A DNA stretch of 64,000 nucleotides, taken from positions 1-64,000 of the IMG/VR virus record IMGVR_UViG_3300042923_001459. One strand, given 5' to 3'. Shown here in pieces: positions 214 to 19,654 of the stretch (position 1 is the first letter of the stretch; each line of letters begins with the position of its first letter). Below the pieces are notes generated by a model. That model was not told the origin of the DNA, searched no databases, and saw only the letters and a list, made by a program, of their open reading frames with translations. The DNA comes from a virus. The translations under genes and the position numbers were made by a program.

Positions 214-495
214 TCAATTTCCTCCTAAAATTTTAGCTAAGTACCTATCATCTTCTCTCCAATAAGCAATTTCTGCATACACATCATTAAGATATTTTTG
301 TAAGCTATGTGATTGTCTAAAGTCACATTGAAACTTTTTTCCAAACACATAACCTTCTTTTTGTATTGAATTATGAGAAATTTCAACAAAACATCTATTT
401 TTGCAATTCAAGATATCTTTAGCAAAACTCGTAGTTCTCACTATATGTGATTCGCAAATAGGGCACTTCTTGTATTTAATCCAGTAATCGTTCAT
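214..495 (-). CDS. CPIC/WKENDRY zinc-ribbon family, copy 1
   Basis: CPIC...CKNRCF...YWREDDRYLAKILGG. Confidence 0.85.
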   Translation of the reverse strand: MNDYWIKYKKCPICESHIVRTTSFAKDILNCKNRCFVEISHNSIQKEGYVFGKKFQCDFRQSHSLQKYLNDVYAEIAYWREDDRYLAKILGGN

Positions 496-782
496 TAGTC
501 TACCCTCCCAAGTATCTCACCAACATATCTATCGTTTTCCTTATAATACAGGATTGCTTGCTCTATCAATTTAAAGGTTTCTTGATTTTTATCTGCTTCT
601 TCTATTGTAGTACAAATTCCTATACGAAAATAATTAGAAAAAACTCTAAAATTAAAATCGCCATAGCCATCGACAGATTCTACACTATAACAACTATTTT
701 TACATGTTCTGTCACCAAAAAATTTGTCCATTAATTTGTCATCACATATTGGACATTTTCCGTTTTTACAATAAATATCCAT
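495..782 (-). CDS. CPIC/WKENDRY family, copy 2
   Basis: DIYCKNGKCPIC...CKNSCY...YYKENDRYV. Confidence 0.85.
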   Translation of the reverse strand: MDIYCKNGKCPICDDKLMDKFFGDRTCKNSCYSVESVDGYGDFNFRVFSNYFRIGICTTIEEADKNQETFKLIEQAILYYKENDRYVGEILGRVD

Positions 783-783
783 T

Positions 784-1020
784 TTATTCTCCTAATAATT
801 TAATGAGATATCTTTCATTAGTTCGCCAATATTTAATTTTTTCTGCTATTGTGTTTTCACTATTTTTATCACTAAGTATAATTTGATTAAAAATAATGAC
901 ATACCCGTCACGAATGGTAAAACAACCATTTTTACATTGTTTGGATTTTAGTTTACAATCACAAATTGGACAATCTTCTATTAAAAATTGCAACACATAA
1001 TTACCACGATAGATAACCAT
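784..1020 (-). CDS. CPIC/WKENDRY family, copy 3
   Basis: CPIC...CKNGCF...YWRTNERYLIKLLGE. Confidence 0.85.
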   Translation of the reverse strand: MVIYRGNYVLQFLIEDCPICDCKLKSKQCKNGCFTIRDGYVIIFNQIILSDKNSENTIAEKIKYWRTNERYLIKLLGE

Positions 1021-1021
1021 A

Positions 1022-1357
1022 TTACACTAACCTCTCTGCAATTAACGCGAGAAGTTCTTCTTGGGTATTCACAAAAATAGGTTCCTTTAAAAAATGATCC
1101 CTATCGTTATTATCAAATTCGCCAATATCATGTCTGATGTTGAAAGCATAACTATTTGAAACATAAGTATATACTACAGCTAAAATTCCAAACTTATCAT
1201 AAATGTAAATTTGCGCAGAATTAGCATTGTGTGTAATTTTAAGTCCGTCTCTTGTCAAATAGGACATAATAAGTGCATCTTTTATTTTTGGAACCATTTC
1301 TTTTGCCGTTTGAACTGCATTTATTTTTACATCATCTGGATATACAAAAGTTTTCAT
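1022..1357 (-). CDS. hypothetical protein
   Basis: ORF; start moved to ATG 1357 downstream of GGAGG. Confidence 0.7.
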   Translation of the reverse strand: MKTFVYPDDVKINAVQTAKEMVPKIKDALIMSYLTRDGLKITHNANSAQIYIYDKFGILAVVYTYVSNSYAFNIRHDIGEFDNNDRDHFLKEPIFVNTQEELLALIAERLV

Positions 1358-1420
1358 ATTTTCCTCCAAATCAAATAATTATATTATTATTATTTAGTGA
1401 AGAAATGTTAAAAAGATGTC

Positions 1421-1453
1421 AAAAATAAAAGGATAGTCAGAATCTATCCTTTT
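1421..1453 (-). terminator. intrinsic terminator
   Basis: AGGATAG/CTATCCT stem with T-tract after the glycosyltransferase stop. Confidence 0.7.
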
Positions 1454-1459
1454 AACAAT

Positions 1460-2476
1460 TTATTTAACTTCAGTTAGGTTTTTTAAAAAATCGCTTGTTG
1501 CTTTTTGCCATGTGTACTTAGACATTACATAGTTTCTGCAAGTAACTGAATCCTTATTTTTTAAAGCAATTTTAATTGCTTCAAGTAATGATTGATTAGT
1601 GCAACCAACATTTGAATTAATAATATCAACTATTTGTGGTACTGAAAATGCAGCAACTGGAACACCTGAAGCAAGTGATTCAATCATCACCAAACCAAAT
1701 GTATCAGTTTTACTAGGGAAACAAAATACCTCAGCACTAGCATAATATGTTGCTAGCTCTTCTCCTTTTTTAGGACCAACAAAAACAACATCTGGATAAG
1801 CCTCTTTAAATTCTTCCAATTGTGGACCATCACCAACTACCAATTTTTTAAGTCCAGGTTTAATTGATGATAAATCTAAACCAAGAAAAGCATCTAAATT
1901 CTTTTCACTTGAAACACGTCCAACATAAAGAACATACTCAAAATCAAATTCGTTACTTTTCTTTTCTGGTGAGAATAGTTCTGCATCAACACCTCTAGAC
2001 CAATATTTAACTCTTGATATACCATTTATCCGTAACTCTTTCTTAATTGATTTTGTTGCAACCATAACATTTGATGATCTTCTGTGAAACCATTTCATAT
2101 ATAAATAACCAACTCGCAATGGTACACCTAATTTATCTTTTGCGTACTCTGGAAATTTAGTATGATAAGCAGTGGTGAATTTCAATTTTTTATCTACACA
2201 ATATTTCCTAGCAGAAATTCCCAATGGACCTTCAGTTGCTATATGAATGTAATTGGGTTTGATGTTTTCCATAAGAACATTAAGTTTTTTAGTATGATGA
2301 TAGACAATAGAAATCTCTTTATAAAATGGCAATGGAAATGTATCAAACATACTTGGCTCAATTACAAAAACTTCAAATCCTCTATCTTGTAATTCCTTAA
2401 TTGTATTGTTTAGCGTATTAACAACACCGTTAATTTGAGGTGACCAAGCATCAGTGACAATAAGTATTCTATTCAT
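1460..2476 (-). CDS. GT4 glycosyltransferase, Agt-like (glycosyl-diacylglycerol synthase type)
   Basis: ILIVTDAWxPQINGVV, HIATEGPLG, TTAYHTKFPEY, YVGRVSSEKN, FPSKTDTFGLVMIES motifs. Confidence 0.85.
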   Translation of the reverse strand: MNRILIVTDAWSPQINGVVNTLNNTIKELQDRGFEVFVIEPSMFDTFPLPFYKEISIVYHHTKKLNVLMENIKPNYIHIATEGPLGISARKYCVDKKLKFTTAYHTKFPEYAKDKLGVPLRVGYLYMKWFHRRSSNVMVATKSIKKELRINGISRVKYWSRGVDAELFSPEKKSNEFDFEYVLYVGRVSSEKNLDAFLGLDLSSIKPGLKKLVVGDGPQLEEFKEAYPDVVFVGPKKGEELATYYASAEVFCFPSKTDTFGLVMIESLASGVPVAAFSVPQIVDIINSNVGCTNQSLLEAIKIALKNKDSVTCRNYVMSKYTWQKATSDFLKNLTEVK

Positions 2477-3263
2477 TCTTTATGATCTCTCCGTTTGGTA
2501 ACAATTCTACTATTACATTATTATTATTCTCATCGTACCATCTAATGAGTTTTATTGTTCCATCCATTTCTTCAACTAAAACAGTACAAGACTCAACAAA
2601 ATCTCCATCATTCAAGTAATGCACACCATTAATGTTTCTAATTTCAGGATGATGAATATGTCCACAAACTACTCCATCATATCCGTTTTTCTTGCATTCA
2701 TAAGACAAGGCTTCTTCAAAACTTGATATAAAATTTACAGCTTCTTTAACTTTGAGTTTAATATTAGCACTTAAACTCCAATATCCTAAACCAAATTTTC
2801 TTCTAATCCAGTTAAGAGGAGCATTTAAATTTAAAAGCAATTCATAACCATAATCACCTAAAATTGCTACCCACTTAGCATATCTGGTTACGTTATCAAA
2901 TTCATCACCATGAATGATTAAAAATTTCTTTCCAGTTGCAGTAATGTGATCAGTTTTTTCACATACTTCAATATCTCCAACATCTAATGGACAATAGTTT
3001 CTAATTGCGTCATCATGATTACCTGGAATATATTTAATTATAGTATTGTTTTCACTTTTCTTTAGAATTTTTCGAATAATTTCATTATGATCTTTTGGCC
3101 AATAAACTTTTGATTTCAATCTCCACATATCAATAATGTCTCCAACTAAATACAAATATTCTGATTCTGTATTGTTCAAAAGCGATAATACACTATTTGA
3201 TTTGCTACGTTTAGTACCCAAATGTAAATCTGACATCCATATAGTACGATATTTCATTTTCAA
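2469..3263 (-). CDS. metallophosphoesterase, PlcP/LpxH-like (probable phospholipase C)
   Basis: SDLHLG, LVGDIIDxWRL, YIPGNHD, IHGDEFD, CGHIHHP, NDGDFVES; overlaps the GT4 start. Confidence 0.85.
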   Translation of the reverse strand: MKMKYRTIWMSDLHLGTKRSKSNSVLSLLNNTESEYLYLVGDIIDMWRLKSKVYWPKDHNEIIRKILKKSENNTIIKYIPGNHDDAIRNYCPLDVGDIEVCEKTDHITATGKKFLIIHGDEFDNVTRYAKWVAILGDYGYELLLNLNAPLNWIRRKFGLGYWSLSANIKLKVKEAVNFISSFEEALSYECKKNGYDGVVCGHIHHPEIRNINGVHYLNDGDFVESCTVLVEEMDGTIKLIRWYDENNNNVIVELLPNGEIIKNE

Positions 3264-3348
3264 ATTTCCTCCTCATCATTCATATTAAAATAATAAGTTA
3301 AAGCAAGACTAGAATTAATAGGAAAAAAAAATTTAACATGTAGTTTAC

Positions 3349-3378
3349 AAAATAAAAAGGATAGTTGAATTCTATCCT
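3349..3378 (-). terminator. intrinsic terminator overlapping stop of copy 4
   Basis: AGGATAG-loop-CTATCCT followed by TTTTATTTT on minus strand. Confidence 0.7.
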
Positions 3379-3677
3379 CCGGTGATAATTTTTGCTAAAT
3401 AACGCTCATTTTGTTTCCAATATGTTATGTGTTCTAACACTGCATTTTCTAATTTTTCTAAAGACTGACTATTACTACTAAATCTTGCTACTCTTTTATC
3501 AAACACATAAGCATAATATTGACGACAAGTTTTTAAATCACTGTCTCTATATTTGTATGTTTCAAGTTTGTAACAACCATTTGTGCAAAATAATACGCCA
3601 GAATCAAAATCATCCAATCCATCAAGTTCAGATTCACATATAGGACAATTTCCATCCCCACAATAAATATCTATCAT
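3372..3677 (-). CDS. CPIC/WKENDRY family, copy 4
   Basis: MIDIYCGDGNCPIC...CTNGCY...YWKQNERYLAKI. Confidence 0.85.
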   Translation of the reverse strand: MIDIYCGDGNCPICESELDGLDDFDSGVLFCTNGCYKLETYKYRDSDLKTCRQYYAYVFDKRVARFSSNSQSLEKLENAVLEHITYWKQNERYLAKIITGG

Positions 3678-4009
3678 AACATCCTCTTAAAATTATTAAG
3701 TACTCTCCAAAAACTTGGACTATTTTTCTTTCTGTAAATGATGGGAAATTTATCATTAGAAGAATAAATACTATATTGTGTGAACTGACTATGCTTATTG
3801 CGGTGAATTGTTAGAGTGTATTTATGATCATGATTTTTTTTAAAATAACAATGCATTTGCATATCACTTGAATTATATGCGCAAGTAATATCATATCCCA
3901 CCATTATTGCTAATAATTTAATATTGTCAAATTCATCGGATAGATTTTGCGCAATATCTTCTTTAGCATCATCTAAAAGAAACTCTATTTTGTCAATAAC
4001 TAATTTCAT
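3674..4009 (-). CDS. hypothetical protein
   Basis: ORF with AAGGGG SD; ATGA overlap with copy 4. Confidence 0.7.
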   Translation of the reverse strand: MKLVIDKIEFLLDDAKEDIAQNLSDEFDNIKLLAIMVGYDITCAYNSSDMQMHCYFKKNHDHKYTLTIHRNKHSQFTQYSIYSSNDKFPIIYRKKNSPSFWRVLNNFKRML

Positions 4010-4132: not shown

Positions 4133-4414
4133 ATGACATACCAAAATCGTGGACCTGAAAACCCAAATCACCAAATTGACCCTAATAAACTTAAAATCAC
4201 TGCAGTACGTAAGGATGGTAGAGGTGATATCACAGAAGTTCAATTTCAAAATGGAGAAACAGCTTCAATAGAACAAGCAATTCAAATGGCTGAACAGGAT
4301 TTAATCGAAGATGTTAATACAGGCGCAACACGCGGAGAAGATAAACACAAAACCCTTCGTTCTTATCCTGATGGAGATCCTACCAACAACCTAGATAATT
4401 TACCTACATTCTAA
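4133..4414 (+). CDS. DUF3892-like protein
   Basis: ITAVRKDGRGDITEV...LRSYPDGDPTNNLDNLP pattern; AAGGAG SD. Confidence 0.75.
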   Translation: MTYQNRGPENPNHQIDPNKLKITAVRKDGRGDITEVQFQNGETASIEQAIQMAEQDLIEDVNTGATRGEDKHKTLRSYPDGDPTNNLDNLPTF

Positions 4415-4423: not shown

Positions 4424-4457
4424 TAAAAGAGTACATCATAACGATGTACTCTTTTTA
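4424..4457. terminator. bidirectional terminator
   Basis: AAAAGAGTACATC/GATGTACTCTTTT perfect stem between convergent genes. Confidence 0.8.
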
Positions 4458-4740: not shown

Positions 4741-4745
4741 CAAAT

Positions 4746-5381
4746 TTATCTTTCAATAACTTCTGGATGAAATCCATCTTCTTGTACATAGCCGTCAATA
4801 GACCAAATACCTATTTTCTCGTTTTTAGCAAGTTGCTCATCTTTTTGATACTCAATTAAGTGAGGTGCATTCTTAATATAAACATAAGCAACTCTCGCAA
4901 ATCCATTTAAAATTAATTGTTCTTGAACAGATTTACCATCTATGTAAACATATGCTAAACCACGATTGTATTTGTCAAGACCAGATTGAATTTCTAAACC
5001 AACCTCTTTATTTAATAAAAGTTTTTTTATAAACTCACTCGCTTCAGGTCCAAATGGTTGAATGGGCGTACCGGGTTTTTTAGTTTCAGGAGTATCAACT
5101 AACAAAAGTCTAAATTGTGTTTTTACACCATTTAAATCTGTCTCAATAGTATCTCCATCAATTACCCTTGTTACTTTAGCTTTTGCTCTTGAATACGTTG
5201 TTTTTCCAATTGGCGATGATAACGGAATTTCTGGTAATATTGATTGTGGTTGCATAACATTTTGAGTAACAGTTGATTGCGTTGGTTGTGGAACTGGTGT
5301 AGGACTAATTTTTCTAGCATCATAACAACCAACAGTTAAAACCAACATAGCTGACATTAATCCAAATAAAATCTTTTTCAT
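4746..5381 (-). CDS. thermonuclease (SNase family) lipoprotein
   Basis: Lipobox TVGC; RVIDGDT, RLLLVDTPE, DKYNRGLAYVY, GFARV. Confidence 0.9.
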   Translation of the reverse strand: MKKILFGLMSAMLVLTVGCYDARKISPTPVPQPTQSTVTQNVMQPQSILPEIPLSSPIGKTTYSRAKAKVTRVIDGDTIETDLNGVKTQFRLLLVDTPETKKPGTPIQPFGPEASEFIKKLLLNKEVGLEIQSGLDKYNRGLAYVYIDGKSVQEQLILNGFARVAYVYIKNAPHLIEYQKDEQLAKNEKIGIWSIDGYVQEDGFHPEVIER

Positions 5382-5820: not shown

Positions 5821-6111
5821 TCATCTCCTTATTAATTCAGCTAGATACTTATCGTTTTCTTTCCAATAAACAATTTGATCAATGACTTCCTGTTCTTTAA
5901 GTATCTTGTCTATGTCGCGACTATTAAACCCAATGAATAATTTACCAAAGAAATACACATAATATTTATCTGTCCAATCCAATTGTTCATATTCATCAAT
6001 TTTATAGCAACCATTTAAACAAGTCTTTTTAAAAACAACAAATGGTGAAATATCCATTTTTGAATTACAAATAGGGCACAAACTGTCTTTACAATAAATG
6101 TCAATATTCAT
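5821..6111 (-). CDS. CPIC/WKENDRY family, copy 5
   Basis: MNIDIYCKDSLCPIC...CLNGCY...YWKENDKYL. Confidence 0.85.
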   Translation of the reverse strand: MNIDIYCKDSLCPICNSKMDISPFVVFKKTCLNGCYKIDEYEQLDWTDKYYVYFFGKLFIGFNSRDIDKILKEQEVIDQIVYWKENDKYLAELIRR

Positions 6112-6133: not shown

Positions 6134-6433
6134 TTATACACTGTTCATAATTTTCATTAAGTATCTGTCATTTTCTTTCCAATAATTAATATTGTCTATT
6201 AATTGATTAGTAGCCATATTTTGTATTGATTTATTAGACATAAGTGGCACTATGCGTTGGTGTTTAAACACCCAAAATCTATCTACATTGTATCCACCAT
6301 TTTGTTGATTGTCTACGTGGAATTCATAACAACCATTTTTACATTGTGAACATCTTCCCATTGGCACTTTGATTTTTTGTAATTCTGAATTACAAATAGG
6401 GCAGAGACCATCTTTACAATAAATATCAATCAT
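6134..6433 (-). CDS. CPIC/WKENDRY family, copy 6
   Basis: MIDIYCKDGLCPIC...CKNGCY...YWKENDRYL. Confidence 0.85.
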   Translation of the reverse strand: MIDIYCKDGLCPICNSELQKIKVPMGRCSQCKNGCYEFHVDNQQNGGYNVDRFWVFKHQRIVPLMSNKSIQNMATNQLIDNINYWKENDRYLMKIMNSV

Positions 6434-6714
6434 CTTGTATCACCCAAAATTCTTATCAAATATCTATCGTTTTCTTTCCAATAAGCAACAATGTCTTTAA
6501 ATATTTGTTCTTCCTTTTTATTAGTTTCGTCACTTGTATAGCCACGAAAAATAATTATTTTTACTTTTTTTAGATCTGGAGACATTAAGCAATGATTAAC
6601 AAAGAGGCCAAAATCTTCAGTCTCATAACAACCATTTATGCAAATGGTGCCTACCATTCCACTACGCTCATATAATAGTTCTTTTTCGCAAATTGGACAA
6701 TGATTAAATTTCAT
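6430..6714 (-). CDS. CPIC/WKENDRY family, copy 7
   Basis: CPIC...CINGCY...YWKENDRYL. Confidence 0.85.
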   Translation of the reverse strand: MKFNHCPICEKELLYERSGMVGTICINGCYETEDFGLFVNHCLMSPDLKKVKIIIFRGYTSDETNKKEEQIFKDIVAYWKENDRYLIRILGDTR

Positions 6715-6774
6715 TTAATTCACCTCATCCTATATTATATATATTTAGGACACGAGATTTAACCAGATGACACC

Positions 6775-8314: not shown

Positions 8315-8626
8315 CTATTTTGTCATTATTTTTATTAAGTACCTGTCATTTTCTTTCCAATATTGAATTTGCTTAATTATTTCTTTCTTTACAGCCTTTT
8401 TCTTTTTTCTAGAATAGATAGTTTTTAATGAATACTTTTTATTGAAAATAAAAAAGTCAATTTGACTATATATTTTCTTGCCATATGACCGCATTGAGAC
8501 AGAACCATAACACTTATTAATACAAAATGACGGAACAAGAGTTCCTGGTTTAAATCTACAACTATAAGTACTTAATAATTTTGATTTACAAATAGGACAT
8601 TTTCTATCTCTATAATAAAGATCCAT
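8315..8626 (-). CDS. CPIC/WKENDRY family, copy 8
   Basis: CPIC...CINKCY...YWKENDRYL. Confidence 0.85.
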   Translation of the reverse strand: MDLYYRDRKCPICKSKLLSTYSCRFKPGTLVPSFCINKCYGSVSMRSYGKKIYSQIDFFIFNKKYSLKTIYSRKKKKAVKKEIIKQIQYWKENDRYLIKIMTK

Positions 8627-8631: not shown

Positions 8632-8886
8632 CTATACTCCCATCATCTTTGTGAGATATCTTTCATCTTGCTTCCAATATTTAATTTCATCCATAATTTT
8701 AGCTTCATCTCTAAACATATTAAAGCAAACTTTATCTTCGTCAAAAAAGTGTATGAATACCTCATCAACTGTGAAACATCTATTCTCACAATAACTGAAA
8801 TCTACAAATCTACTTGGATCATTACATGTAATTTTACCATCACATATTGGACATTTATGTATGAATAGATTAAAAACTTTAACCAT
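8632..8886 (-). CDS. CPIC/WKENDRY family, copy 9
   Basis: CPIC...CENRCF...YWKQDERYL. Confidence 0.85.
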   Translation of the reverse strand: MVKVFNLFIHKCPICDGKITCNDPSRFVDFSYCENRCFTVDEVFIHFFDEDKVCFNMFRDEAKIMDEIKYWKQDERYLTKMMGV

Positions 8887-9211
8887 TTGTCATTATCCTC
8901 ATTAAATATTTTTCGTCTTGTTTCCAATAAACTATCTCACTTCTTACAGCATCTTCGACACTTCTCAACTCATCTTTTGACATTGTTTTATTAATTGTGT
9001 ATAATTGGCCAGAAAGTAATTCAAAATAATTAGTACTTTCACTACCATTGATTATCTTCTTAGTTTTTTCACTAACAAACATATGTGAAAAACAAACGTT
9101 TGGACAAATATACCAATACCCTGCACCTTTTCTATAAACAGAAAAACTGGATTTATCTATTAATCTACTATCACAAATAGGACATGCATCATCACAATAA
9201 ATATTTATCAT
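8879..9211 (-). CDS. CPIC/WKENDRY family, copy 10
   Basis: MINIYCDDACPIC...CPNVCF...YWKQDEKYL. Confidence 0.85.
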   Translation of the reverse strand: MINIYCDDACPICDSRLIDKSSFSVYRKGAGYWYICPNVCFSHMFVSEKTKKIINGSESTNYFELLSGQLYTINKTMSKDELRSVEDAVRSEIVYWKQDEKYLMRIMTNG

Positions 9212-9212: not shown

Positions 9213-9491
9213 TTAAATACCCATCATCTTAGTAAGATACCTTTCGTCTTTTCTCCAATAACAAACAATATCAATTATATTTTCGTAATCCTTTGAAGCT
9301 ACCCCCATAAAATCTCCATAAATGAAAATAGCTGCACTTCTCTCCTCTTCGCCAATATAAATAATAGAATAGCAATTGTTTGCACATTTAACATCTATAT
9401 TGACAGAGCCTTCATATGTGGTTGTACTCATTGTGCTTTTACAAATTGGACATATATTATCTTTGCATAGAATAATATCTAGCACTTTCAC
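9213..9491 (-). CDS. CPIC/WKENDRY family, copy 11
   Basis: GTG start after GGAGG; CPIC...CANNCY...YWRKDERYL. Confidence 0.8.
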   Translation of the reverse strand: MKVLDIILCKDNICPICKSTMSTTTYEGSVNIDVKCANNCYSIIYIGEEERSAAIFIYGDFMGVASKDYENIIDIVCYWRKDERYLTKMMGI

Positions 9492-9492
9492 T

Positions 9493-9957
9493 TTACGCCT
9501 CCGGATATACATCTTTCCAAATAAAATCTCTATGTTCCCATCCTTGCACAATGTATTTTCTTGATAAGAAATGAGCCCTTAAATTATGACTCACAGGAAT
9601 AACATTCAACTTAAAGGATTTAAATTTCTTTAAGTTATTAGCAATCATAAAGACATTACTTTTTTCTAGTCCAATAGGAATAGCATCCTTTTTAACAATG
9701 TGTTTGTTGTATATTTTGGTAACTCTATCGTGAACTTCTTTAGAATTGAAATTGATTTCAACATTTTCCGCACCAATTTCAACTAAACGATCAACAACTA
9801 CCTTTAATGCTAATACGTGTTGACGTAATGATTTTTCTGCATCTTCAACTTGAACTACATTCTCCTCAATAAATTTGCCATTTTTGAAAATCAAGTAAGA
9901 AACTGCAGATTTCTCTCCCTTTAAAGAACCTGTGCAATAAGCTGTATATAAACTCAT
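9493..9957 (-). CDS. RNase HI-fold protein, catalytic acidic residues absent
   Basis: Aligns by eye to RNase HI family: YCTGS / HVLAL / NFNSKEV / IPVSHNLRAHFLS in place of YxDG / EYxAL / GDSxLV / IPRxxNxxADxL. Confidence 0.6.
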   Translation of the reverse strand: MSLYTAYCTGSLKGEKSAVSYLIFKNGKFIEENVVQVEDAEKSLRQHVLALKVVVDRLVEIGAENVEINFNSKEVHDRVTKIYNKHIVKKDAIPIGLEKSNVFMIANNLKKFKSFKLNVIPVSHNLRAHFLSRKYIVQGWEHRDFIWKDVYPEA

Positions 9958-9958: not shown

Positions 9959-10228
9959 TTATACATCCTCCATCAGTTTTATTAAGTATCTATCATTTTC
10001 TTTCCAATAATTTATCTTTGCATCAACATCTCGATGATATTCTCTCCATTGTTCATTGTCGTATGTGTAGTGAGCGTGAAACTCTTCATAAAAAATAACT
10101 GTCATGGTTGAACCGTAAGCAAATTCATAATAGTAACATCTGTTCGGACAAGCTTCCGAGTTTTCATCGTTATCACCTGTTTGTTTCATTTTGGCTTCAC
10201 AAATTGGACATTTAGACACATTATTCAC
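9959..10228 (-). CDS. CPIC/WKENDRY family, copy 12
   Basis: CPIC...CPNRCY...YWKENDRYL. Confidence 0.85.
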   Translation of the reverse strand: MNNVSKCPICEAKMKQTGDNDENSEACPNRCYYYEFAYGSTMTVIFYEEFHAHYTYDNEQWREYHRDVDAKINYWKENDRYLIKLMEDV

Positions 10229-10550
10229 CTACCATTATTTTTGCTAAGTATCTATCATTTGCCTTCCAATAAGACACTCGTTCTAAGAACTTTTTCATAT
10301 CTTCATCAAATTTCTTTTGTCTTTCGTAATCTCTTGGTTGAATTGGATGCCATTGTAAAAGCGCTTCTTTATATAACTCTAAGAGAAAATATTCTTCTCC
10401 AAAAATTTTAACACTTACATTTTCACCCTGTGGATCAACATCATATGTAACACAACCATTGCTACACCAAAGATCAGTAGCTCCATCATATTCCGAATTT
10501 AACTCCTTACTGCAAATAGGACAAACATGATAATTGTAATCAAATTTCAT
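10221..10550 (-). CDS. CPIC/WKENDRY family, copy 13
   Basis: CPIC...CSNGCV...YWKANDRYL. Confidence 0.85.
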   Translation of the reverse strand: MKFDYNYHVCPICSKELNSEYDGATDLWCSNGCVTYDVDPQGENVSVKIFGEEYFLLELYKEALLQWHPIQPRDYERQKKFDEDMKKFLERVSYWKANDRYLAKIMVGE

Positions 10551-10579
10551 TTTAATCACCGTCTTTAATTTTTTTTATT

Positions 10580-11543: not shown

Positions 11544-11653
11544 AAAATCTCTCCCTATGTTTGATATTATATTGTATATATTTAGTGAATAAGTTTGAAA
11601 TGAAATAAAAAAGAAACAGACTTATGTCTATTTCTTCATAACGCCTATATTGT

Positions 11654-12692: not shown

Positions 12693-12723
12693 AAAATAAA
12701 AAGGAGTAGATTTCTCCACTCCT
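12693..12723 (-). terminator. intrinsic terminator after copy 14
   Basis: AGGAGTGGA/TCTACTCCT stem plus TTTTATTTT. Confidence 0.65.
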
Positions 12724-13015
12724 AATCACTTATGATTTTTATCAAATATCTGTCGTTTTCTTTCCAATACTCAATGCGTTCTCTAATTTGAGTCTCTTGT
12801 TTTCTGTATTTTGTTTCTCCATCACGCTTAACTAGATTAAAATAACCTTTATTTCCATCTAAATTTACAATAATAGAAACATCGCTTCCGCTGACTTCAT
12901 TATATCCAAATGTATAACAACCGTTTACACAATTAGTTGCCATAGATTCAACATCAAACTTTACCCTACCATCGCATATTGGACATTTTTTATTCTGCAT
13001 ATAAATATCAATCAT
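12722..13015 (-). CDS. CPIC/WKENDRY family, copy 14
   Basis: MIDIYMQNKKCPIC...CVNGCY...YWKENDRYL. Confidence 0.85.
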   Translation of the reverse strand: MIDIYMQNKKCPICDGRVKFDVESMATNCVNGCYTFGYNEVSGSDVSIIVNLDGNKGYFNLVKRDGETKYRKQETQIRERIEYWKENDRYLIKIISD

Positions 13016-13017: not shown

Positions 13018-13302
13018 TTATTTTGACAATAGATTCAATAAATATCTATCATCTTGCCTCCAGTACTCAATTTTCTTCTTGATGCTTTTTCTATCTAAAT
13101 ACTTTACAATAAAATTGTCGTCATCCCAAATAGAAGCAACCTTTTCATCAAACACATAGTAATCTATATATCCATATCCACCATACGTGGTATAACAACC
13201 ATTTCTACAAATTTTATTGCTACCATTATACCATGTCATTTCAGATTCACAAACCGGACAACAGTACTCAAAATTCTTAAATTTTTTCTTATTCACCGAC
13301 AA
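13018..13302 (-). CDS. CPIC/WKENDRY family, copy 15
   Basis: CPVC...CRNGCY...YWRQDDRYL. Confidence 0.85.
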   Translation of the reverse strand: MSVNKKKFKNFEYCCPVCESEMTWYNGSNKICRNGCYTTYGGYGYIDYYVFDEKVASIWDDDNFIVKYLDRKSIKKKIEYWRQDDRYLLNLLSK

Positions 13303-13570
13303 TTATCCTCATTAAATATTTGTCATTCTCTTTCCAATAATTAATTTTGTCAATTATCTTTTTCTTTTGTGTCTTAGTACTAAAATAAGTTTCTTCCTCA
13401 TTATCTTCATCATAAAATATAGAAACAGCATACCCGTTTGAAATATCGCTCCTGTATATCTCATAACATTTGTTTACGCATACAGAATCAAATTTGTAAA
13501 AATCACTTACAACAATATTTGATTCGCATATTGGACATTTTCTATTTTTACAATAAATGTCAATTTCCAT
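13289..13570 (-). CDS. CPIC/WKENDRY family, copy 16
   Basis: MEIDIYCKNRKCPIC...CVNKCY...YWKENDKYL. Confidence 0.85.
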   Translation of the reverse strand: MEIDIYCKNRKCPICESNIVVSDFYKFDSVCVNKCYEIYRSDISNGYAVSIFYDEDNEEETYFSTKTQKKKIIDKINYWKENDKYLMRIIVGE

Positions 13571-13880: not shown

Positions 13881-13955
13881 CTACCACCTTTTAATTATAT
13901 TATATATATTTAGTTGGCAAACTTGAACAGAATCTAAATAGAAATATATGAAGTC

Positions 13956-14220
13956 ACATGAAATATAAAATATTGCAACTAGAAATAACATCATAGATAA
14001 TATAAATAGAGGTGATTTTATGTCGAAAAAAATTAAGTTCACCGGTTTTGATGCTGGAGTTAATGCGGAATCATTAACATTGTCTCTTTATCACAATAAT
14101 CAAGATGTTAAATTTTTAAAATTAACTGAAAATCAAGAAGTTACTATTTCTGAAGATGACTACAATAGTTTGCCTGAAAGCTTATTTGAAAATGGAACTA
14201 TAGTTTTAGTTGAAGATGTT
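13956..14220 (+). repeat. duplicated upstream region plus N-terminal anchor coding sequence (copy A)
   Basis: ACATGAAATATAAAATATT...TAGAGGTGATTTT-ATG and first ~65 codons similar to 15971..16230. Confidence 0.8.
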
Positions 14221-15951
14221 AATTTAACAAAAGTAAGTATTGATATTGTAAATGTTAAAAGTTTTGGAGCAATTGGAGACGGAGTAAATGATGATTCAGA
14301 TGCTATATTAGCAACTTTTGATTATGCTTTCTCAAATAACAAGGTTGTTTATTTTCCCGCAGGCTCATTTATGATAAGCAAACCAATTGTTTTTAAAGCT
14401 CCTTTTTACGGTTTGTCAAATCATTCTAGTGCTATAAAAGCATTACCTTCTTTTGTAGGAAGACATGATTCAAATTGGGCAGCAACAACAGCATATGCAC
14501 TAAATAGCTATGTATTGTCAACAAATGGGAAAATTTACAAAGCAACTGTGGCTGGTACAAGTGGTTCAACAGCACCATCTCATGCAAGTGGAACATCAGG
14601 AGACGGAACAGTAACTTGGCAATATGTAGATTCATTCATGATTGATTTTTATCATCTAAACTACAAAGAACGTAAATACATTAAAGGAATTAACTTTAGT
14701 GCTCAAAATGTAGTTGGTTTAAAAATCTTTGGTAGTTCAAGTACTGGCGGTGGTGCAGGTAGTGCTCAAACTTTATTTGAAGATTTATGGTTTACAAATA
14801 CACATGCAAATGTTTATGCTGTTGGTGGGGATAGTGGCGGAGTAGTTGAAGCAGGTATGCTTACAGGCGGTACTTTTTTAAGATGTACATGGAACGGTTG
14901 CCCTAGAATGCTTAAAATAGGTAGTAACCAAGATGACACAGTGTTTATTGGTTGTCGTTTTGTTATGCCGGGTACTCCACCTGGTGGCTATACAATGGAA
15001 CTTCAAGGTCAAAACTGTAATTTTACTGATAGTTATATGTCCTTAACTACTGGTTGGTCAAGCGGTGGAATTAAAACATTGATTTTCGTTGGAAGTTTTC
15101 CTGTAAAATTTTCAGGATTATTTTTAGAATGTAACAGCGGTGATTTTACGCATGTATTCCATTGTGGAAATCCTAGCGCGGTACTTATTTTAGAAAATGT
15201 TGTTCATAGAATAGTTGGAAATTCACCATATGTTTCATTAATTCGCTCACAAGTTAATGGTTCTACAAACCCTGATGGAACAACTATAGATGTAAGAAAT
15301 ATTTATGCTTATACAGGAACAACAACTCCAGTTCTTGATGTTTACACAAACGGAATTGCTTCCCCTCAATCAATTACATTTAGATTCAGTGGTATTGATA
15401 TGTTCCCAAATATCATGCAATTCGCAACTGGTAGTGGTGGAGCTGATAACGCAAATGGTTCAGTTAAGTTATTCGGTAACTTTAAAGGAAAATCATATGA
15501 ACACGCAGTCAATTGGACAAATGGAGTAAATAAATTAATACCATTAAAGGCGGATGGTCGTTATGGAATGGTTACAAGTGAAAGTAATGTAACAATTGCT
15601 TCTCAAGTAAGTCCATCAATTTCAACCTTTACCTTACCATCAGCAGGTATGTGGCTAGTTGCTGTTACTGCAAAATTGAATGGAAGTAAAGATCATATGG
15701 GTAATACTTTGTATTTAGTTAATTACTATGATGCAACCAATGATACTTTAACTTCAGAGAATTTGGGTAATGGTTCAAAATTCTCAGCGGGAAGTGGATT
15801 TGGAGCTAACGTTTTGACCGTTAGTGCACCAACGACTGCAGGGGTACTAACTATTACAGCTGGATGGACAGATGGAGCAGCTCACTCGGTTGTTTTCTCG
15901 GTTCAAGCTAGAAAATTAACTTCCTATGATACAGGTTTTAACGGATACTAA
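14020..15951 (+). CDS. beta-helix (pectate lyase 3-like) spike/fibre protein A
   Basis: NVKSFGAIGDGVNDDSDAI...VYFPAG; inserted WAATTAY...GTVTWQY carbohydrate-binding-type segment; Gly/Ser/Thr-rich body. Confidence 0.75.
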   Translation: MSKKIKFTGFDAGVNAESLTLSLYHNNQDVKFLKLTENQEVTISEDDYNSLPESLFENGTIVLVEDVNLTKVSIDIVNVKSFGAIGDGVNDDSDAILATFDYAFSNNKVVYFPAGSFMISKPIVFKAPFYGLSNHSSAIKALPSFVGRHDSNWAATTAYALNSYVLSTNGKIYKATVAGTSGSTAPSHASGTSGDGTVTWQYVDSFMIDFYHLNYKERKYIKGINFSAQNVVGLKIFGSSSTGGGAGSAQTLFEDLWFTNTHANVYAVGGDSGGVVEAGMLTGGTFLRCTWNGCPRMLKIGSNQDDTVFIGCRFVMPGTPPGGYTMELQGQNCNFTDSYMSLTTGWSSGGIKTLIFVGSFPVKFSGLFLECNSGDFTHVFHCGNPSAVLILENVVHRIVGNSPYVSLIRSQVNGSTNPDGTTIDVRNIYAYTGTTTPVLDVYTNGIASPQSITFRFSGIDMFPNIMQFATGSGGADNANGSVKLFGNFKGKSYEHAVNWTNGVNKLIPLKADGRYGMVTSESNVTIASQVSPSISTFTLPSAGMWLVAVTAKLNGSKDHMGNTLYLVNYYDATNDTLTSENLGNGSKFSAGSGFGANVLTVSAPTTAGVLTITAGWTDGAAHSVVFSVQARKLTSYDTGFNGY

Positions 15952-15970
15952 GATAAAAATATTTAAGGTA

Positions 15971-16230
15971 ACATGAAATATAAAATATTTGCACCGAGAA
16001 ATAGCATAATAAAATATGAATAGAGGTGATTTTTATGTCAAAAAAAATCAAATTTACAGGTTTTGATGCTGGTGTTAATGCTGAAACATTAATATTATCT
16101 TTGTATCCAAACAACGAGGATGTTAAGTTTCTAAAATTAATTGAAAATCAAGAAGTTACTATTTCCAACAGTGACTATAACAACTTACCAGAAAGTTTAT
16201 TTACAGATGGAACAATAGTTCTACTTGAAG
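15971..16230 (+). repeat. duplicated upstream region plus N-terminal anchor coding sequence (copy B)
   Basis: Matches 13956..14220. Confidence 0.8.
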
Positions 16231-17564
16231 ACAAACTTTCAATAAATGCAAAAGAATTTAACGTTATAGGCGATGGAGTCGCAGACGATACGGTAGCTAT
16301 ACAAAACGCAATAAACGCAGCAACAAACGCTAAACTACCATTATTCTTACCAGCTGGTACTTACAAAATCACTGCTGGATTAACAGCCCCTGTAAGAAAC
16401 TTCATGATGTATGGAGCAGGCGGAACATTAACTAAAATCGTTCCAGATACTTATACATTCGATGTTTTAACTATTGGTACAGCTGCAGGTTCAGTTCCTA
16501 TTGGCTCATCAGGTTACCTAAAGGACATTTTCATTGAAGGTAAAACTACTTACTATTCAACAGATTACTGGACAGGAGTAAAATTAGTAAGTACGAGACA
16601 GTTCAATGTTGAAAACGTAACGGTTCATAAAATGTCAATTGGTTTCGATCTTATAAGTAATTGCTACGGAACCGTATTCAACAACTGTAGAGCTATGTTA
16701 GGAGCTGTCGGCGTAAACCTTAGATCAGGCCCAGAAAGTGGTAGTGATCTTAACTTCTATGGTGGTTGGTTTTCTGGAGTTGTTGCTGCTGTCCACATGA
16801 GTCCAGACGGTGGAGGATATCACTTCTTTGGTGGACAATTCTCTGGTGGAGCAAATTTATCTTCAGATCAAGACTTACTTGGTTCAATTATTATTGGTAA
16901 AGATTATATCACTGGAGCAGTTGGTATTACTCCAAACGTAATATTTGACGGTATTGATTTTGAAGGCGCAAAATATATGCACGCAATCAGATGTTTCGGT
17001 CAAACTACATTGACAATTCGTAATTGTAGCTTCTTACAAACTGATTCTTCAGCACCTGGATTATTAGCGGCTCCACTTAGTATTATTAAATCTGATAACG
17101 CTGTTCAATCTCAAATCATATTTGATAATAATGGAGTTAAAGGTTACTGGAAATCTGTTAAAGCGTTTGATATAACTGGTCAAGGAAGCGTATGTTATGT
17201 ACAGGAAACTGGAACAGTTCTTGAGTCTAATGTTAAATTCAATAACGTATCTGTTGGTAATGGAACTCCATTGATGGTTCAATCTCAATGCTCTTTAGGT
17301 TCTGCATTCTGGAGATCTGGTTCAGCACCAAAGGTATTGATGGGAAGTGTTATTTCTCGTATGACAAGCGGAAAATTAGAGAAATCATACGACTGGGGTA
17401 CAACTTGGAATACTGAAATTCCTTCTGGAACAACAGCAGCAAGACCTACTACCACAGCAATTATGTATGCAGGCTATATGTACTTTGATACAACTCTTGG
17501 AAAACCTATCTGGAGAAATACAGCTAATACTGGTTGGGTAGATTCTGCAGGTACAACAGTTTAA
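16035..17564 (+). CDS. beta-helix (pectate lyase 3-like) spike/fibre protein B
   Basis: NAKEFNVIGDGVADDTVAIQNAI...LPAGTY; C-terminal GTTAARP...YFDTTLGKPIW...WVDSAG fibre-tip motif. Confidence 0.75.
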   Translation: MSKKIKFTGFDAGVNAETLILSLYPNNEDVKFLKLIENQEVTISNSDYNNLPESLFTDGTIVLLEDKLSINAKEFNVIGDGVADDTVAIQNAINAATNAKLPLFLPAGTYKITAGLTAPVRNFMMYGAGGTLTKIVPDTYTFDVLTIGTAAGSVPIGSSGYLKDIFIEGKTTYYSTDYWTGVKLVSTRQFNVENVTVHKMSIGFDLISNCYGTVFNNCRAMLGAVGVNLRSGPESGSDLNFYGGWFSGVVAAVHMSPDGGGYHFFGGQFSGGANLSSDQDLLGSIIIGKDYITGAVGITPNVIFDGIDFEGAKYMHAIRCFGQTTLTIRNCSFLQTDSSAPGLLAAPLSIIKSDNAVQSQIIFDNNGVKGYWKSVKAFDITGQGSVCYVQETGTVLESNVKFNNVSVGNGTPLMVQSQCSLGSAFWRSGSAPKVLMGSVISRMTSGKLEKSYDWGTTWNTEIPSGTTAARPTTTAIMYAGYMYFDTTLGKPIWRNTANTGWVDSAGTTV

Positions 17565-17572
17565 TTTCTAAT

Positions 17573-17604
17573 AAAAAGAGTAGCTTAAAAGCTACTCTTT
17601 TTTT
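17573..17604. terminator. bidirectional terminator
   Basis: AAAAAGAGTAGCTT/AAGCTACTCTTTTT. Confidence 0.8.
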
Positions 17605-17645
17605 ATGTCATTTTTAAATATCATTACATTTGTTTTTCTAGCTCT

Positions 17646-18113
17646 CTAAAATTCAACCTCTACATTAAACTTAACACCATTCTCATTGTAATAAAATACC
17701 TTAAAACCATCTAATCTAGCATCAATTTCTCTATAAGTTACATCTCTCGGCCATTCAAAACTATATTGACCAATTTCTTCCCATTTCTCGTAAGTGATTT
17801 CTTCGGGCCAATCTTCATCATAAGCTGGTTCGCCATCCATTGAACCAAGATATTCATGACCAAACCAAAGTTTATATTCGGCATGCTTAGAATAAGAATT
17901 ACGAGCTTCATTCCATGGCAGATTTTTAAACTTATGTAATGTTGCAAGTACTTCTTCAACTAATTCAATTTTCTCAGATGGAATTCTAACATACTCCTTA
18001 GTATAAGCATCCGCGTCACCATGCATAAATTTAACTTCAATTTCATACCTGTTTGTACTTTTAGGGGTATCTGACATTGTCCCAATTGTTAATTTCAATT
18101 TTATTCTCTCCAT
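17646..18113 (-). CDS. hypothetical phage protein
   Basis: 155-aa ORF; MHGDADAY...WPRD. Confidence 0.7.
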   Translation of the reverse strand: MERIKLKLTIGTMSDTPKSTNRYEIEVKFMHGDADAYTKEYVRIPSEKIELVEEVLATLHKFKNLPWNEARNSYSKHAEYKLWFGHEYLGSMDGEPAYDEDWPEEITYEKWEEIGQYSFEWPRDVTYREIDARLDGFKVFYYNENGVKFNVEVEF

Positions 18114-18182
18114 TCATTTTTAATGATAAATAATTATTATTTATTAAGTCCTATTTTTTAACAAAATAAAAAGAGAGTATTT

Positions 18183-18461
18183 TTACTCCCCAACAAGGAT
18201 TCTCATTAAGTATCTATCATTCTCTTTCCAATATTCAATCTTCTCAATTATCTTCACCATTTGCTTTTTAATACTAAAATAAGTTTCATCTTCATTGTCT
18301 CTATCATAAAATACAGAGATTGCATACACTCTCTCTTCACCATCCATATGTATCTCATAACATTTATTTTCACAATAGGCAGAAAGATCGCTAAGATGAA
18401 TGAGATCGTTTTCACATATTGGACATTTGTTATCCTTACAATAAACATCTATTTCACTCAT
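18183..18461 (-). CDS. CPIC/WKENDRY family, copy 17
   Basis: IDVYCKDNKCPIC...CENKCY...YWKENDRYL. Confidence 0.85.
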   Translation of the reverse strand: MSEIDVYCKDNKCPICENDLIHLSDLSAYCENKCYEIHMDGEERVYAISVFYDRDNEDETYFSIKKQMVKIIEKIEYWKENDRYLMRILVGE

Positions 18462-18480
18462 TTTCTCCACCTTCTAGTCA

Positions 18481-18759
18481 TTAGTTAATAGTTAATATCT
18501 TGGTCAAGTATCTATCATTCTCTTTCCAATATTTAATAGTGTCTTCTATTTTATTGGATACATCAAAACACTGTTCTTTATTAAAATCATAGTGTTCATA
18601 AAATTCTTCTCCAAATATCAAAATTTTTGTAGTTCCATACGCATAATCTTCAGAATAGCAACCATTAACACATTTCTCATGAGACTCTTCTGTTCTTCCA
18701 TACTCATCACTATAAATATTATAATGAAGTTTTGAACCACAAATTGGACAATCTCGCAA
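18481..18759 (-). CDS. CPIC/WKENDRY family, copy 18
   Basis: CPIC...CVNGCY...YWKENDRYL. Confidence 0.85.
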   Translation of the reverse strand: MRDCPICGSKLHYNIYSDEYGRTEESHEKCVNGCYSEDYAYGTTKILIFGEEFYEHYDFNKEQCFDVSNKIEDTIKYWKENDRYLTKILTIN

Positions 18760-18760
18760 T

Positions 18761-19063
18761 TTAATCCACTCCCATAATCTTCATTAAATATCTATCATTC
18801 TTTCTCCAATAAATCAATCTTTCCATGAATCTAATTTGATGCATTGAGAATTCTTCTAAGTCTTCGTCATCAAATAATAATTTTTCTACGTTGTAAAGTA
18901 TTGGCTCATCAAAAATCTTAACATTGGCAAATGCAGTGTATCTATCAATAAAGCACCAAAAGCATTTATTAGGGCATGTTGAATAACCATACTTGTCTTC
19001 GTCAAACATCTTGCTTCTACATATTGGGCATTCTCCAAGTTTAAAATTTATTTTATTTCGCAT
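18761..19063 (-). CDS. CPIC/WKENDRY family, copy 19
   Basis: CPIC...CPNKCF...YWRKNDRYL. Confidence 0.85.
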   Translation of the reverse strand: MRNKINFKLGECPICRSKMFDEDKYGYSTCPNKCFWCFIDRYTAFANVKIFDEPILYNVEKLLFDDEDLEEFSMHQIRFMERLIYWRKNDRYLMKIMGVD

Positions 19064-19077
19064 TTATATCACCTATT

Positions 19078-19359
19078 TTATACATTCATTATTTTTACTA
19101 AGTACCGATCGTTTTCTTTCCAAAAATTAATTTTCTCTTTAACTGCTATTTCCGTCTCTTTCTTATACTCATCATAATGACATCTAACCATTTCTTCAAA
19201 AATTAGAAAAGTATGAACTTCTGGTTCACCTAACCAATAAACATATTCATAACATTTATTTTTACAACAAATTCTATACAGATAACTTTCTTTTGTTTGC
19301 ATTTTAGATCCACATATGGGACAAATCTCTTTTTCACAATAAATATCTATTTTACTCAC
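19078..19359 (-). CDS. CPIC/WKENDRY family, copy 20
   Basis: IDIYCEKEICPIC...CKNKCY...FWKENDRYL. Confidence 0.85.
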   Translation of the reverse strand: MSKIDIYCEKEICPICGSKMQTKESYLYRICCKNKCYEYVYWLGEPEVHTFLIFEEMVRCHYDEYKKETEIAVKEKINFWKENDRYLVKIMNV

Positions 19360-19654
19360 CTGCCATTATCCCAATTAAATATCTATCATTTTCTTTCCAA
19401 TATCTGATTGTTTGTTCAATTTTATCTCTAGTTGCTTTATAACTAATAAAATAAGAATCATCATGAAATAAAGATATGTAAGGATCTTTATTGAAAAATC
19501 GAAAGACAGAATAGCTATTATTGTTTCCAATAAAATAACAGGCATTTTTACATTGAAACATTTTATCCGATAGATCCCAACCATCATATTGATCAAGTTC
19601 AATCAACAAACTATCACAAATAGGACATTTTCCATCACTACAATGAATATCCAT
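19352..19654 (-). CDS. CPIC/WKENDRY family, copy 21
   Basis: MDIHCSDGKCPIC...CKNACY...YWKENDRYL. Confidence 0.85.
   Translation of the reverse strand: MDIHCSDGKCPICDSLLIELDQYDGWDLSDKMFQCKNACYFIGNNNSYSVFRFFNKDPYISLFHDDSYFISYKATRDKIEQTIRYWKENDRYLIGIMAGE

Follow-up and report, generated by a model that had tools for sequence, protein, structure and literature searches.

Why does one megaphage locus encode 21 divergent copies of the same small zinc-ribbon protein, and what might these proteins do? The window, a 64,000-nucleotide stretch of DNA forming the first part of a 108.6 kb fragment from a phage-G-like megaphage, encodes all 21 on the minus strand between positions 214 and 19654. They lie in clusters of 3, 1, 3, 4+2, 3 and 5 copies interrupted by cargo genes, each cluster being located exactly where a preliminary description, made from the DNA letters, had placed it. 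The family profile matches the 108.6 kb record exactly 21 times (E 1.4e-29 to 1.6e-16), finds zero further copies over the remaining 88 kb of the record, and has 36 matches in phage G, gp32 (YP_009015343.1) among them. Every window copy is a single-domain protein. The sizes first given, about 78-110 aa, were close to the mark, but three open reading frames (5821-6111, 9213-9512 and 13289-13570) probably start at an internal ATG, so that the real range is about 78-112 aa. The copies are as follows.

214-495, minus strand: copy 1, 93 aa; profile E 4.2e-24; AF2 model with pLDDT 90
495-782, minus strand: copy 2, 95 aa; tail variant YYKENDRYV; E 2.1e-24
784-1020, minus strand: copy 3, 78 aa; compost-phage orthologue at L009:8376-8708, 56% identical, support 97
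3372-3677, minus strand: copy 4, 101 aa; solitary; terminator-like hairpin at 3380-3356
5821-6111, minus strand: copy 5, 96 aa counted from ATG; frame open to a GTG at 6141
6134-6433, minus strand: copy 6, 99 aa; top family-profile match, E 1.4e-29
6430-6714, minus strand: copy 7, 94 aa; upstream sigma-A-like promoter TTAAAT-17-TATAAT at 6765-6731
8315-8626, minus strand: copy 8, 103 aa; the sole strongly basic member, pI 10.0, charge +19
8632-8886, minus strand: copy 9, 84 aa; open reading frame and profile match
8879-9211, minus strand: copy 10, 110 aa; open reading frame and profile match
9213-9512, minus strand: copy 11, about 99 aa; start uncertain, frame open to 9551; profile match 9219-9473
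9959-10228, minus strand: copy 12, 89 aa; open reading frame and profile match
10221-10559, minus strand: copy 13, 112 aa; orthologue at L009:5405-5788, 57%, support 98; subfamily shared with the Tad2-fused protein P0177 (40% identity)
12722-13015, minus strand: copy 14, 97 aa; terminator-like hairpin at 12723-12702
13018-13302, minus strand: copy 15, 94 aa; open reading frame and profile match
13289-13570, minus strand: copy 16, 93 aa from an internal ATG; frame open to 13696
18183-18470, minus strand: copy 17, 95 aa; terminator-like hairpin at 18191-18172
18481-18759, minus strand: copy 18, 92 aa; open reading frame and profile match
18761-19063, minus strand: copy 19, 100 aa; open reading frame and profile match
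19078-19359, minus strand: copy 20, 93 aa; open reading frame and profile match
19352-19654, minus strand: copy 21, 100 aa; first gene of the array region that follows the head module

Relatives in phage G and other megaphages

Judged by sequence, the window family is an already known one, the "ZnR" expansion of phage G (PHROG 4661/13559), whose tandem array Hua et al. 2017 (PMC5646251) had noticed and which Iyer et al. 2021 (PMC7824862) described as a lineage-specific expansion, naming gp32 as an example. The phage G members, roughly 35 copies, are gp32/34/35/37/46, gp166, gp206, gp410, gp444 and gp447-474. They share with the window copies reciprocal profile matches, the signature CPxC...CxNxC[YF]...IF...YWKENDRYL and the predicted fold, and both phages are Bacillales-type megaphages of roughly 0.5 Mb in which the copy number is high. 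All ten window copies tested match phrog_13559 (107 aa) and phrog_4661 (205 aa), with E values between 2e-5 and 7.5e-24; nine reach 6e-13 or better for both, and the short copy at 784-1020 gives 2.8e-08 and 2e-05. The window proteins align to positions 107-204 of phrog_4661. The preliminary description had allowed that a profile might lead to a known single-function family; instead, the window copies are members only of PHROG entries that carry no assigned function. The module has no match in NCBIfam or PADLOC, and its best Pfam score, 16.9 bits, falls short of the cut-off of 25.7, with weak sub-threshold matches to primase and other zinc-finger models.

The two phages differ in the architecture of the expansion. 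Most of the phage G set consists of 27-28 two-domain proteins, each about 200 aa long, encoded in tandem without interruption, whereas the window carries single-domain copies in interrupted clusters. The extra N-terminal alpha+beta domain of the phage G proteins is undetectable in the window, and an HMM built from it finds no match in the window or the compost loci. The idea that this domain is a degenerate ZnR module was rejected (hhalign probability 0.1%), as was a winged-helix reading of gp206 made by eye, PHROG 4661 spanning the full length of gp206. Phage G proteins gp475-484, checked as cysteine-less relatives, are not relatives.

The expansion is common to at least three G-like phages, namely phage G, the window phage and a compost megaphage. 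The expectation that the family continues past the window is supported: a further paralogue, P0028, at most 40% identical to any window copy, sits on a 163,216-bp NCBI contig that also carries window copies. A megablast of 20 kb against the phage collection returned no match, IMG/VR yielded phage G only, apart from the window's own record, and no relatives were found in 185,579 representative prokaryote genomes. On our reading, the family is confined to phage-G-like megaphages. Relatives carry the module joined to other domains, including a Tad2-like one: P0177, encoded on one metagenomic contig, has an N-terminal domain resembling the Thoeris anti-defence protein Tad2 (PF11195; 28.3 bits, cut-off 25), and its ZnR module is the one that is 40% identical to the window copy at 10221-10559.

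Conservation, selection and age

In an alignment of the 21 copies (alignment A1), C11, P12, C14, C31, N33, C35 and Y85 are invariant and I13, Y78, W79 and L86 nearly so. Across 213 non-redundant modules the four cysteines and Y86 are 100% conserved, and each of nine successive helix positions, 79-87, is at least 68% conserved; in window copies and relatives the C-terminal helix ends I-x-Y-W-K-E-N-D-R-Y-L-x-K-I-L. Conservation is concentrated at the zinc knuckles, in one strand and over the final 15 residues of that helix, and the four invariant cysteines (CPxC, CxNxC) should hold one zinc ion. Elsewhere the hairpin between the knuckles varies from 8 to 36 residues, net charge across the members ranges from -9 to +19, and the pI of the window copies ranges from 4.7 to 10.0. 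Pairwise identity among the 21 window copies averages 31%, with a maximum of 59%. The middle region, at first described as barely alignable, is indeed poorly conserved but can still be aligned, I50 being conserved at 58% and F51 at 92% family-wide.

The ratio pN/pS takes values of 0.41 for the ribbon, 0.55 for the middle and 0.23 for the tail. The middle region does not evolve neutrally but is under constraint, and no positive selection is visible, the ratio lying below 1 in every region. Synonymous variation in the tail codons, reported in the preliminary description, is readily seen at invariant residues: Y139 is encoded by TAC in 8 copies and TAT in 13, L140 by five codons and R138 by four. 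DNA repeats between copies are confined to conserved motifs and reach only 60-83% identity, so that recent gene conversion was rejected; a mobile element was rejected as well, flanking repeats being absent. The C-terminal half of copy 16 is 79% identical in nucleotides to copy 17 (repeat D5).

Two clear cross-phage orthologues show dN of 0.28-0.29, compared with 0.27-0.33 in ordinary cargo genes, and orthologues are retained between phages in which dS is saturated. Monophyly of the window copies is rejected (AU p = 0.00075); they interleave with compost-megaphage copies, and the phage G array forms a clade of its own (support 92). In comparison with a phage that has a 94% identical capsid-like protein, most copies lack a counterpart of more than 40% identity, and the median best identity is 35% for ZnR copies versus 58% for shared cargo genes. 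ZnR is an old, selectively maintained multigene family of shared ancient origin.

Predicted fold and the conserved helix

The AF2 single-domain model (pLDDT 90) predicts a compact one-domain protein, an alpha-beta sandwich in which a five-stranded sheet is arranged around the Cys knuckles and a 29-residue C-terminal helix, at residues 62-90, probably packs across the sheet. The earlier picture of a constant scaffold with variable surfaces fits this model, but its docking tail does not, for in the model the conserved tail is the end of the packing helix rather than a free extension. Whether the tail is core or exposed has a divided answer: by helical periodicity, without coordinates, about half of it consists of hydrophobic core candidates (I77, W80, L87, I90, L91), and the other residues, K81, E82 and R85, which are kept in every paralogue and phage examined, would form a conserved polar patch. 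A helix that packs on a sheet has no way of burying all nine conserved residues. The polar ones could, instead of lying exposed, contact the invariant N32 and the zinc knuckle internally.

For the two-domain form of phage G, AF2 gives pLDDT 90 and pTM 0.85, and independent BFVD models of phage G proteins match (TM 0.66-0.86). Foldseek found no PDB match for the ZnR module below E 0.2, the VIA wide structural search peaked at Z 5.1 with the module and at Z 5.2 with the two-domain model, and neighbours of the module in the ESM Atlas score below 0.9. The family profile run against PDB sequences returned chance matches only, among engineered proteins and RING knuckles. Structurally, the module comes closest to frataxin/CyaY (Z 5.0-5.1, rmsd 3.5 A, 73-75 residues), where a Z below 8 may signify a common arrangement; frataxins share the order helix, five strands, long helix, but lack the zinc ribbon and any sequence relation. 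Since the best fold matches are weak (Z about 5), structure offers no functional analogy. Classical zinc ribbons (TFIIB/TFIIE-type, Zn_Ribbon_Prim) resemble the module in having two Cys knuckles around a beta-hairpin; in ZnR, however, the second knuckle is C-x-N-x-C, not CxxC, and the ribbon is part of a larger sheet accompanied by a long C-terminal helix. A prediction of a two-copy ZnR complex scored 0.00, which says nothing either way about a homodimer.

The expansion in phage G was known already. What is new is that it is not peculiar to phage G but an old trait of a whole clade of phages of roughly 0.5 Mb, together with orthologues kept across genomes, a confidently predicted fold without known match and a putative conserved polar patch. 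ZnR ranks with the largest families of paralogous proteins known from any phage genome. These findings make it a well-defined experimental target, and phage G is cultivable.

Candidate functions

Sigma-A-like promoters lie upstream of ZnR genes, and terminator-like hairpins, several of which end ZnR clusters, are enriched (12 found versus 5.9 expected); a generic sigma-70 promoter scan showed no enrichment (115 found versus 116 expected). Cargo genes of the compost phage had no Pfam match. The ZnR genes appear to be expressed from short operons of sigma-A type, interspersed with accessory genes, within a plastic region downstream of the head module. This operon type and location make it most likely that the proteins act in host takeover, through regulation or counter-defence.

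The reading we favour, tentatively, is that ZnR proteins form a panel of non-enzymatic, target-specific binding proteins, built on a constant scaffold and used for host takeover. The constant polar patch would contact a partner shared by every copy, and the variable face would give each paralogue its own target; sequence, length and charge vary freely in the hairpin between the knuckles, in the later strands and in the helix's first half. An arms race might show positive selection; none was seen, an observation that tells against a panel of binders. An anti-defence or adaptor role, as the preliminary description suggested, is unproven, the sole direct hint being the Tad2-like fusion of one metagenomic relative. 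It is doubtful, though worth stating, that G-like megaphages have a germline-encoded repertoire of 20-36 diversified recognition modules which all dock through an invariant K-E-N-D-R-Y helix patch onto one effector, candidates being a protease of the phage or its host, host RNA polymerase or some other hub. The phage would then retarget one machine to many host proteins, and we know of no such combinatorial adaptor system described for any virus of bacteria. If the copies do share one partner, they would show how a polymerase-less megaphage controls its host.

Iyer et al. (PMC7824862) proposed that the phage G proteins are specific transcription factors, and a possible, if unlikely, account of the whole family is that its members are such factors or other regulators directed at DNA or RNA polymerase. 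[quoted passage not shown] The spread of the genes over many small operons with sigma-A-like promoters, the conserved basic residues K81 and R85 of the tail helix and the strongly basic copy of pI 10.0 are consistent with regulators. Zinc ribbons commonly contact nucleic acids or RNA polymerase. The module nevertheless matches no DNA-binding Pfam family above threshold and no DNA-binding fold, the winged-helix reading of gp206 is unsupported, and 16 of the 21 copies have a pI of 4.7-6.6, with about half of the family acidic, which is unusual for direct DNA binders, if not for polymerase binders. We rate as rather improbable the proposal that each paralogue is a stand-alone inhibitor or sponge against a different host defence or host protein, its tail purely structural, so that the family would amount to an anti-defence arsenal instead of adaptors for a shared partner. 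Like Tad2 (PF11195) and other small phage anti-defence proteins and sponges, ZnR proteins are small, often acidic, non-enzymatic and encoded beside variable cargo in an accessory region; the P0177 fusion and the 35% versus 58% median identities, which fit fast turnover, point the same way. The fusion, however, comes from a single metagenomic contig, the window's record has no Tad2-like gene, and the module shares neither sequence nor fold with Tad2 and has no PADLOC or known anti-defence Pfam match. To our knowledge, no ZnR member has anti-defence activity. Values of pN/pS below 1 in all regions and the ordinary cargo-gene rate of the two clear orthologues also argue against an arsenal of inhibitors, and the consecutive conservation of polar tail residues is hard to attribute to folding alone.

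Two further accounts concern the genome itself. Structural DNA-binding proteins were the second suggestion of Iyer et al. (PMC7824862), and the location of the single-domain copies directly downstream of the capsid module in all three phages is what DNA-condensing or head-internal proteins, packaged with a huge genome, might show; the mostly acidic or mixed charges and the extreme sequence diversity, unexpected in a bulk structural role, make this very unlikely. A weaker point against it is that the main-text proteomic descriptions in the 2025 phage G multi-omics paper (PMC12484599) name no ZnR member, gp465/467/472/473 figuring in that main text only as hypothetical proteins in the methylome table. 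Hua et al. 2017 (PMC5646251) took the array in phage G to reflect tandem duplication during genome growth, which would accord with functionless or selfish duplicates that pad the genome, as in the capsid-ratchet idea. Such padding is already disfavoured, and we give it scarcely any credence: no flanking repeats hint at mobility, pN is below pS in all regions, orthologues persist across phages with saturated dS, and although no pair of paralogues exceeds about 63% identity, all 21 frames are intact and their motifs invariant.

Family membership and genomic context

All 21 minus-strand family ORFs claimed in the preliminary description are present in the ORF listing for positions 1 to 22000, at their claimed coordinates and in clusters of 3, 1, 3, 4+2, 3 and 5, with neighboring genes within clusters overlapping by 1 to 14 nt; three of the ORFs probably begin at an internal ATG. 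In an alignment of the 21 copies (A1), residues C11, P12, C14, C31, N33, C35 and Y85 are invariant, I13, Y78, W79 and L86 are nearly so, and mean column identity is 29%. Pairwise identity averages 31% and reaches at most 59%, for 13289-13570 vs. 18183-18470. Codons vary synonymously at invariant residues, as had been reported earlier in support of selection on the protein, and DNA repeats between copies show only 60-83% identity and are confined to the conserved motifs; the copies are therefore alike at the protein level, without recent gene conversion. In copies 16 and 17, numbered by coordinate, the 3' halves (13286-13433 and 18180-18327) are 79% identical as DNA and the 5' halves far more diverged, which suggests that, long ago, part of the gene was duplicated or the paralogues recombined.

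A count of copies by HMM, suggested in the preliminary description, finds exactly 21 places in the 108,591-bp source record (E-values from 1.4e-29 to 1.6e-16), with no further match anywhere else in that record, and 36 places in Bacillus phage G. Among the latter is gp32 (YP_009015343.1), the example cited by Iyer et al. for the phage G ZnR expansion (PMC7824862); the tandem array of phage G had been noted by Hua et al. in 2017 (PMC5646251). All ten of the ten copies tested match PHROG 4661 (205 aa), of which the window proteins span positions 107-204, and PHROG 13559 (107 aa), both annotated as function unknown. Searches of Pfam, NCBIfam and PADLOC return nothing credible for the module, the single domain of zinc ribbon and C-terminal helix, and a 2025 multi-omics paper on phage G gives array members as hypothetical (PMC12484599). 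The window genes are thus real, new members of a family described earlier in phage G and still uncharacterized; they show the expansion to be old and shared across the clade, and they contribute a structural model of high confidence and a sharper, testable hypothesis.

The source record is linear and estimated to be 22% complete, implying a genome of about 0.5 Mb. Of 50,697 phage records, phage G (497,513 bp) is the only one related to it, but a compost-metagenome contig, RCUH01000011.1 (475,962 bp), is closer to the window than phage G: the capsid-like proteins share 94% identity and the rest of the head-module proteins 55-70%, and gene order agrees, the zinc-ribbon region following the head module in both genomes. 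Proteins of the window also occur on a 163,216-bp NCBI contig labeled "MAG: Bacillales bacterium" (e.g. MDF2534377.1, K0R18_534), which appears to be megaphage sequence binned into a bacterial MAG. This contig, which overlaps the window's genome, carries an additional paralogue (P0028), so the family extends beyond the window, as had been guessed.

In a search of 1.84 billion representative proteins, 390 clusters match the family profile at E <= 0.001, and 229 of them also at E <= 1e-10; they are mostly of 83-133 aa with some two-domain forms of about 200 aa, and come from phage G, compost contigs and scattered metagenome contigs. The family is absent from the 185,579 representative prokaryote genomes searched, and in IMG/VR phage G is the only carrier found besides the window's own record.

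Age of the expansion and rates of change

The compost phage has 20 copies within one 20-kb locus (L009), in clusters interrupted as in the window. In a tree of 77 modules, window and compost copies are interleaved, with cross-genome pairs 787 + L009:8376 (support 97), 10224 + L009:5405 (support 98) and, on a long branch, 9216 + L009:10245 (support 93), and monophyly of the window's 21 copies is rejected by the AU test (lnL difference 134, p 0.00075). The expansion is therefore not specific to phage G. The two-domain array of phage G is monophyletic, with 27 members (support 92). Much of the diversification is older than the split of these phages, and the part of the expansion found in phage G only is the two-domain tandem burst and nothing else.

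Synonymous divergence between window and compost phage has reached saturation, with dS at about 1.1 even for the capsid-like gene. The two clear orthologue pairs have dN of 0.28-0.29, compared to 0.27-0.33 for accessory genes and 0.06 for the capsid-like gene. For most window copies no compost-phage counterpart exceeds 40% identity; best identities have a median of 35% for family copies, 58% for shared cargo and 65% for head-module genes. Low identity persists even at a conserved position, where both genomes have four zinc-ribbon genes ahead of a phosphoesterase gene. It could stem from faster divergence or from birth-and-death turnover.

Neutral evolution of the middle segment, an outcome the preliminary description named as contrary to its reading, was not seen. 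Among all copies, from whichever genome, the six most similar pairs (52-63% identity) give uncorrected pN/pS values of 0.41 for the ribbon, 0.55 for the middle and 0.23 for the tail, so that the middle is constrained. At the resolution of these regional values for six pairs, no positive selection is visible. Neutral duplication is an unlikely account of the family.

Predicted structure and candidate roles

AlphaFold2 applied to A1 gives a model (pLDDT 90, pTM 0.78) with a short N-terminal helix, five strands including a knuckle-flanked hairpin, and a helix at residues 62-90. Seven phage G proteins modeled independently in BFVD match it at TM 0.66-0.86, and no other BFVD model does. The best PDB matches are frataxin/CyaY-type sandwiches, a weak likeness at Z 5.0-5.1, under the tool's meaningful level. 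As modeled, the module seems to be a fold variant not described before, built around a zinc ribbon. The phage G two-domain form (pLDDT 90, pTM 0.85) has an extra alpha+beta N-domain that has no sequence relation to the module and is not detectable in the window.

Four cysteines and Y86 are invariant in 213 non-redundant modules; P12, I13, N32, F51, I77, W80, L87 and R85 are at least 88% conserved, and all nine of residues 79-87 at least 68%. Nine consecutive conserved residues cannot all be buried by a helix lying on a sheet, so the tail is probably part core and part conserved surface. Helical periodicity would place I77, W80, L87, I90 and L91, with Y79 and Y86, on the side packed against the sheet and leave K81, E82 and R85 exposed. 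The earlier intuition of a constant scaffold was largely right, but the tail is not the free docking peptide that had been offered as an option.

We tentatively favor a panel of small, non-enzymatic binders. The zinc ribbon and helix would form a scaffold constant across copies, the conserved polar patch would contact a partner or ligand common to all, and a variable face would confer paralogue-specific targets; the copies would be expressed from short operons of host type and would serve in host takeover. The published proposal of a transcription-factor role (Iyer et al.) we consider doubtful, and most plausible if exerted via RNAP rather than DNA: window copies have pI values of 4.7-6.6 (sixteen), 8.5-8.8 (four) and 10.0 (one, +19), about half of the family is acidic and a third basic, and this mixed charge counts against DNA binding as a uniform role. 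Knuckle spacing ranges family-wide from 8 to 36 residues. A structural role is unlikely.

That the copies are a set of independent anti-defense inhibitors seems rather improbable, although one fusion points that way. Longer relatives join the module to other domains, including the phage G N-domain (also in gp206) and an extra CxxC ribbon (P0161). In P0177, on a 2.1-kb metagenome contig, a Tad2-like Thoeris anti-defense domain (PF11195, 28.3 bits vs. a cutoff of 25) is followed by a G-type N-domain and then a module with 40% identity to window copy 10221-10559. This single case is the only direct hint of a counter-defense link.

Operons and intervening genes

Terminator-like hairpins are enriched (12 found vs. 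5.9 +/- 2.1 expected), several lying directly 3' of the last gene of a cluster. An 18-nt minus-strand motif, CTAAATATATATAATATA, occurs three times vs. 0.01 expected. One copy lies inside a sigma-A-like promoter at 6765-6731 (TTAAAT, 17 nt, TATAAT), which comes after a terminator hairpin, and the motif probably marks a class of phage promoters used by host RNAP.

Motif copies and genes in the zinc-ribbon region
6731-6748, minus strand: CTAAATATATATAATATA, just upstream of a minus-strand operon
11568-11585, minus strand: CTAAATATATATAATATA, just upstream of a minus-strand operon
13896-13913, minus strand: CTAAATATATATAATATA, just upstream of a minus-strand operon
1460-3263: GT4 glycosyltransferase and overlapping calcineurin-like metallophosphoesterase, with their own terminator at 1454-1426
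4133-4414, plus strand: DUF3892 protein, 81% identical to its compost-phage homologue
4746-5381: staphylococcal-nuclease homologue (PF00565, E 4.6e-29), lipoprotein-like N-terminus (…LTVGC…)
Plus strand, opposite to the zinc-ribbon genes: two pectate-lyase-like spike proteins, 643 and 512 aa

The region between clusters is a typical plastic accessory region, with a PPP-type phosphoesterase gene among its cargo. Neither the 1460-3263 pair, PlcP/Agt-like in the preliminary description, nor the spike proteins have counterparts in the compost-phage loci examined. The spike genes have a common 201-nt 5' segment (14016-14216 and 16031-16231, 81% identity) and then diverge. Judging by its N-terminus, the 4746-5381 product may be a phage nuclease that is secreted or anchored in the membrane. 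The DUF3892 protein is far better conserved than neighboring genes, and its gene is followed by a 13-bp bidirectional terminator-like hairpin at 4425-4455. The gene at 20193-20636, which separates the capsid-like gene from the zinc-ribbon region, has a compost homologue twice as long and a sub-threshold ROS/MucR zinc-finger match (23.7 bits vs. a cutoff of 25.4). In phage G, gp475-484 (26034-29206 of its locus L001), small proteins of 83-122 aa, directly follow the zinc-ribbon array; among them gp478-480, which have none of the ZnR family's cysteines, are another small paralogous set with a common IEEWIEE-type C-terminal helix.
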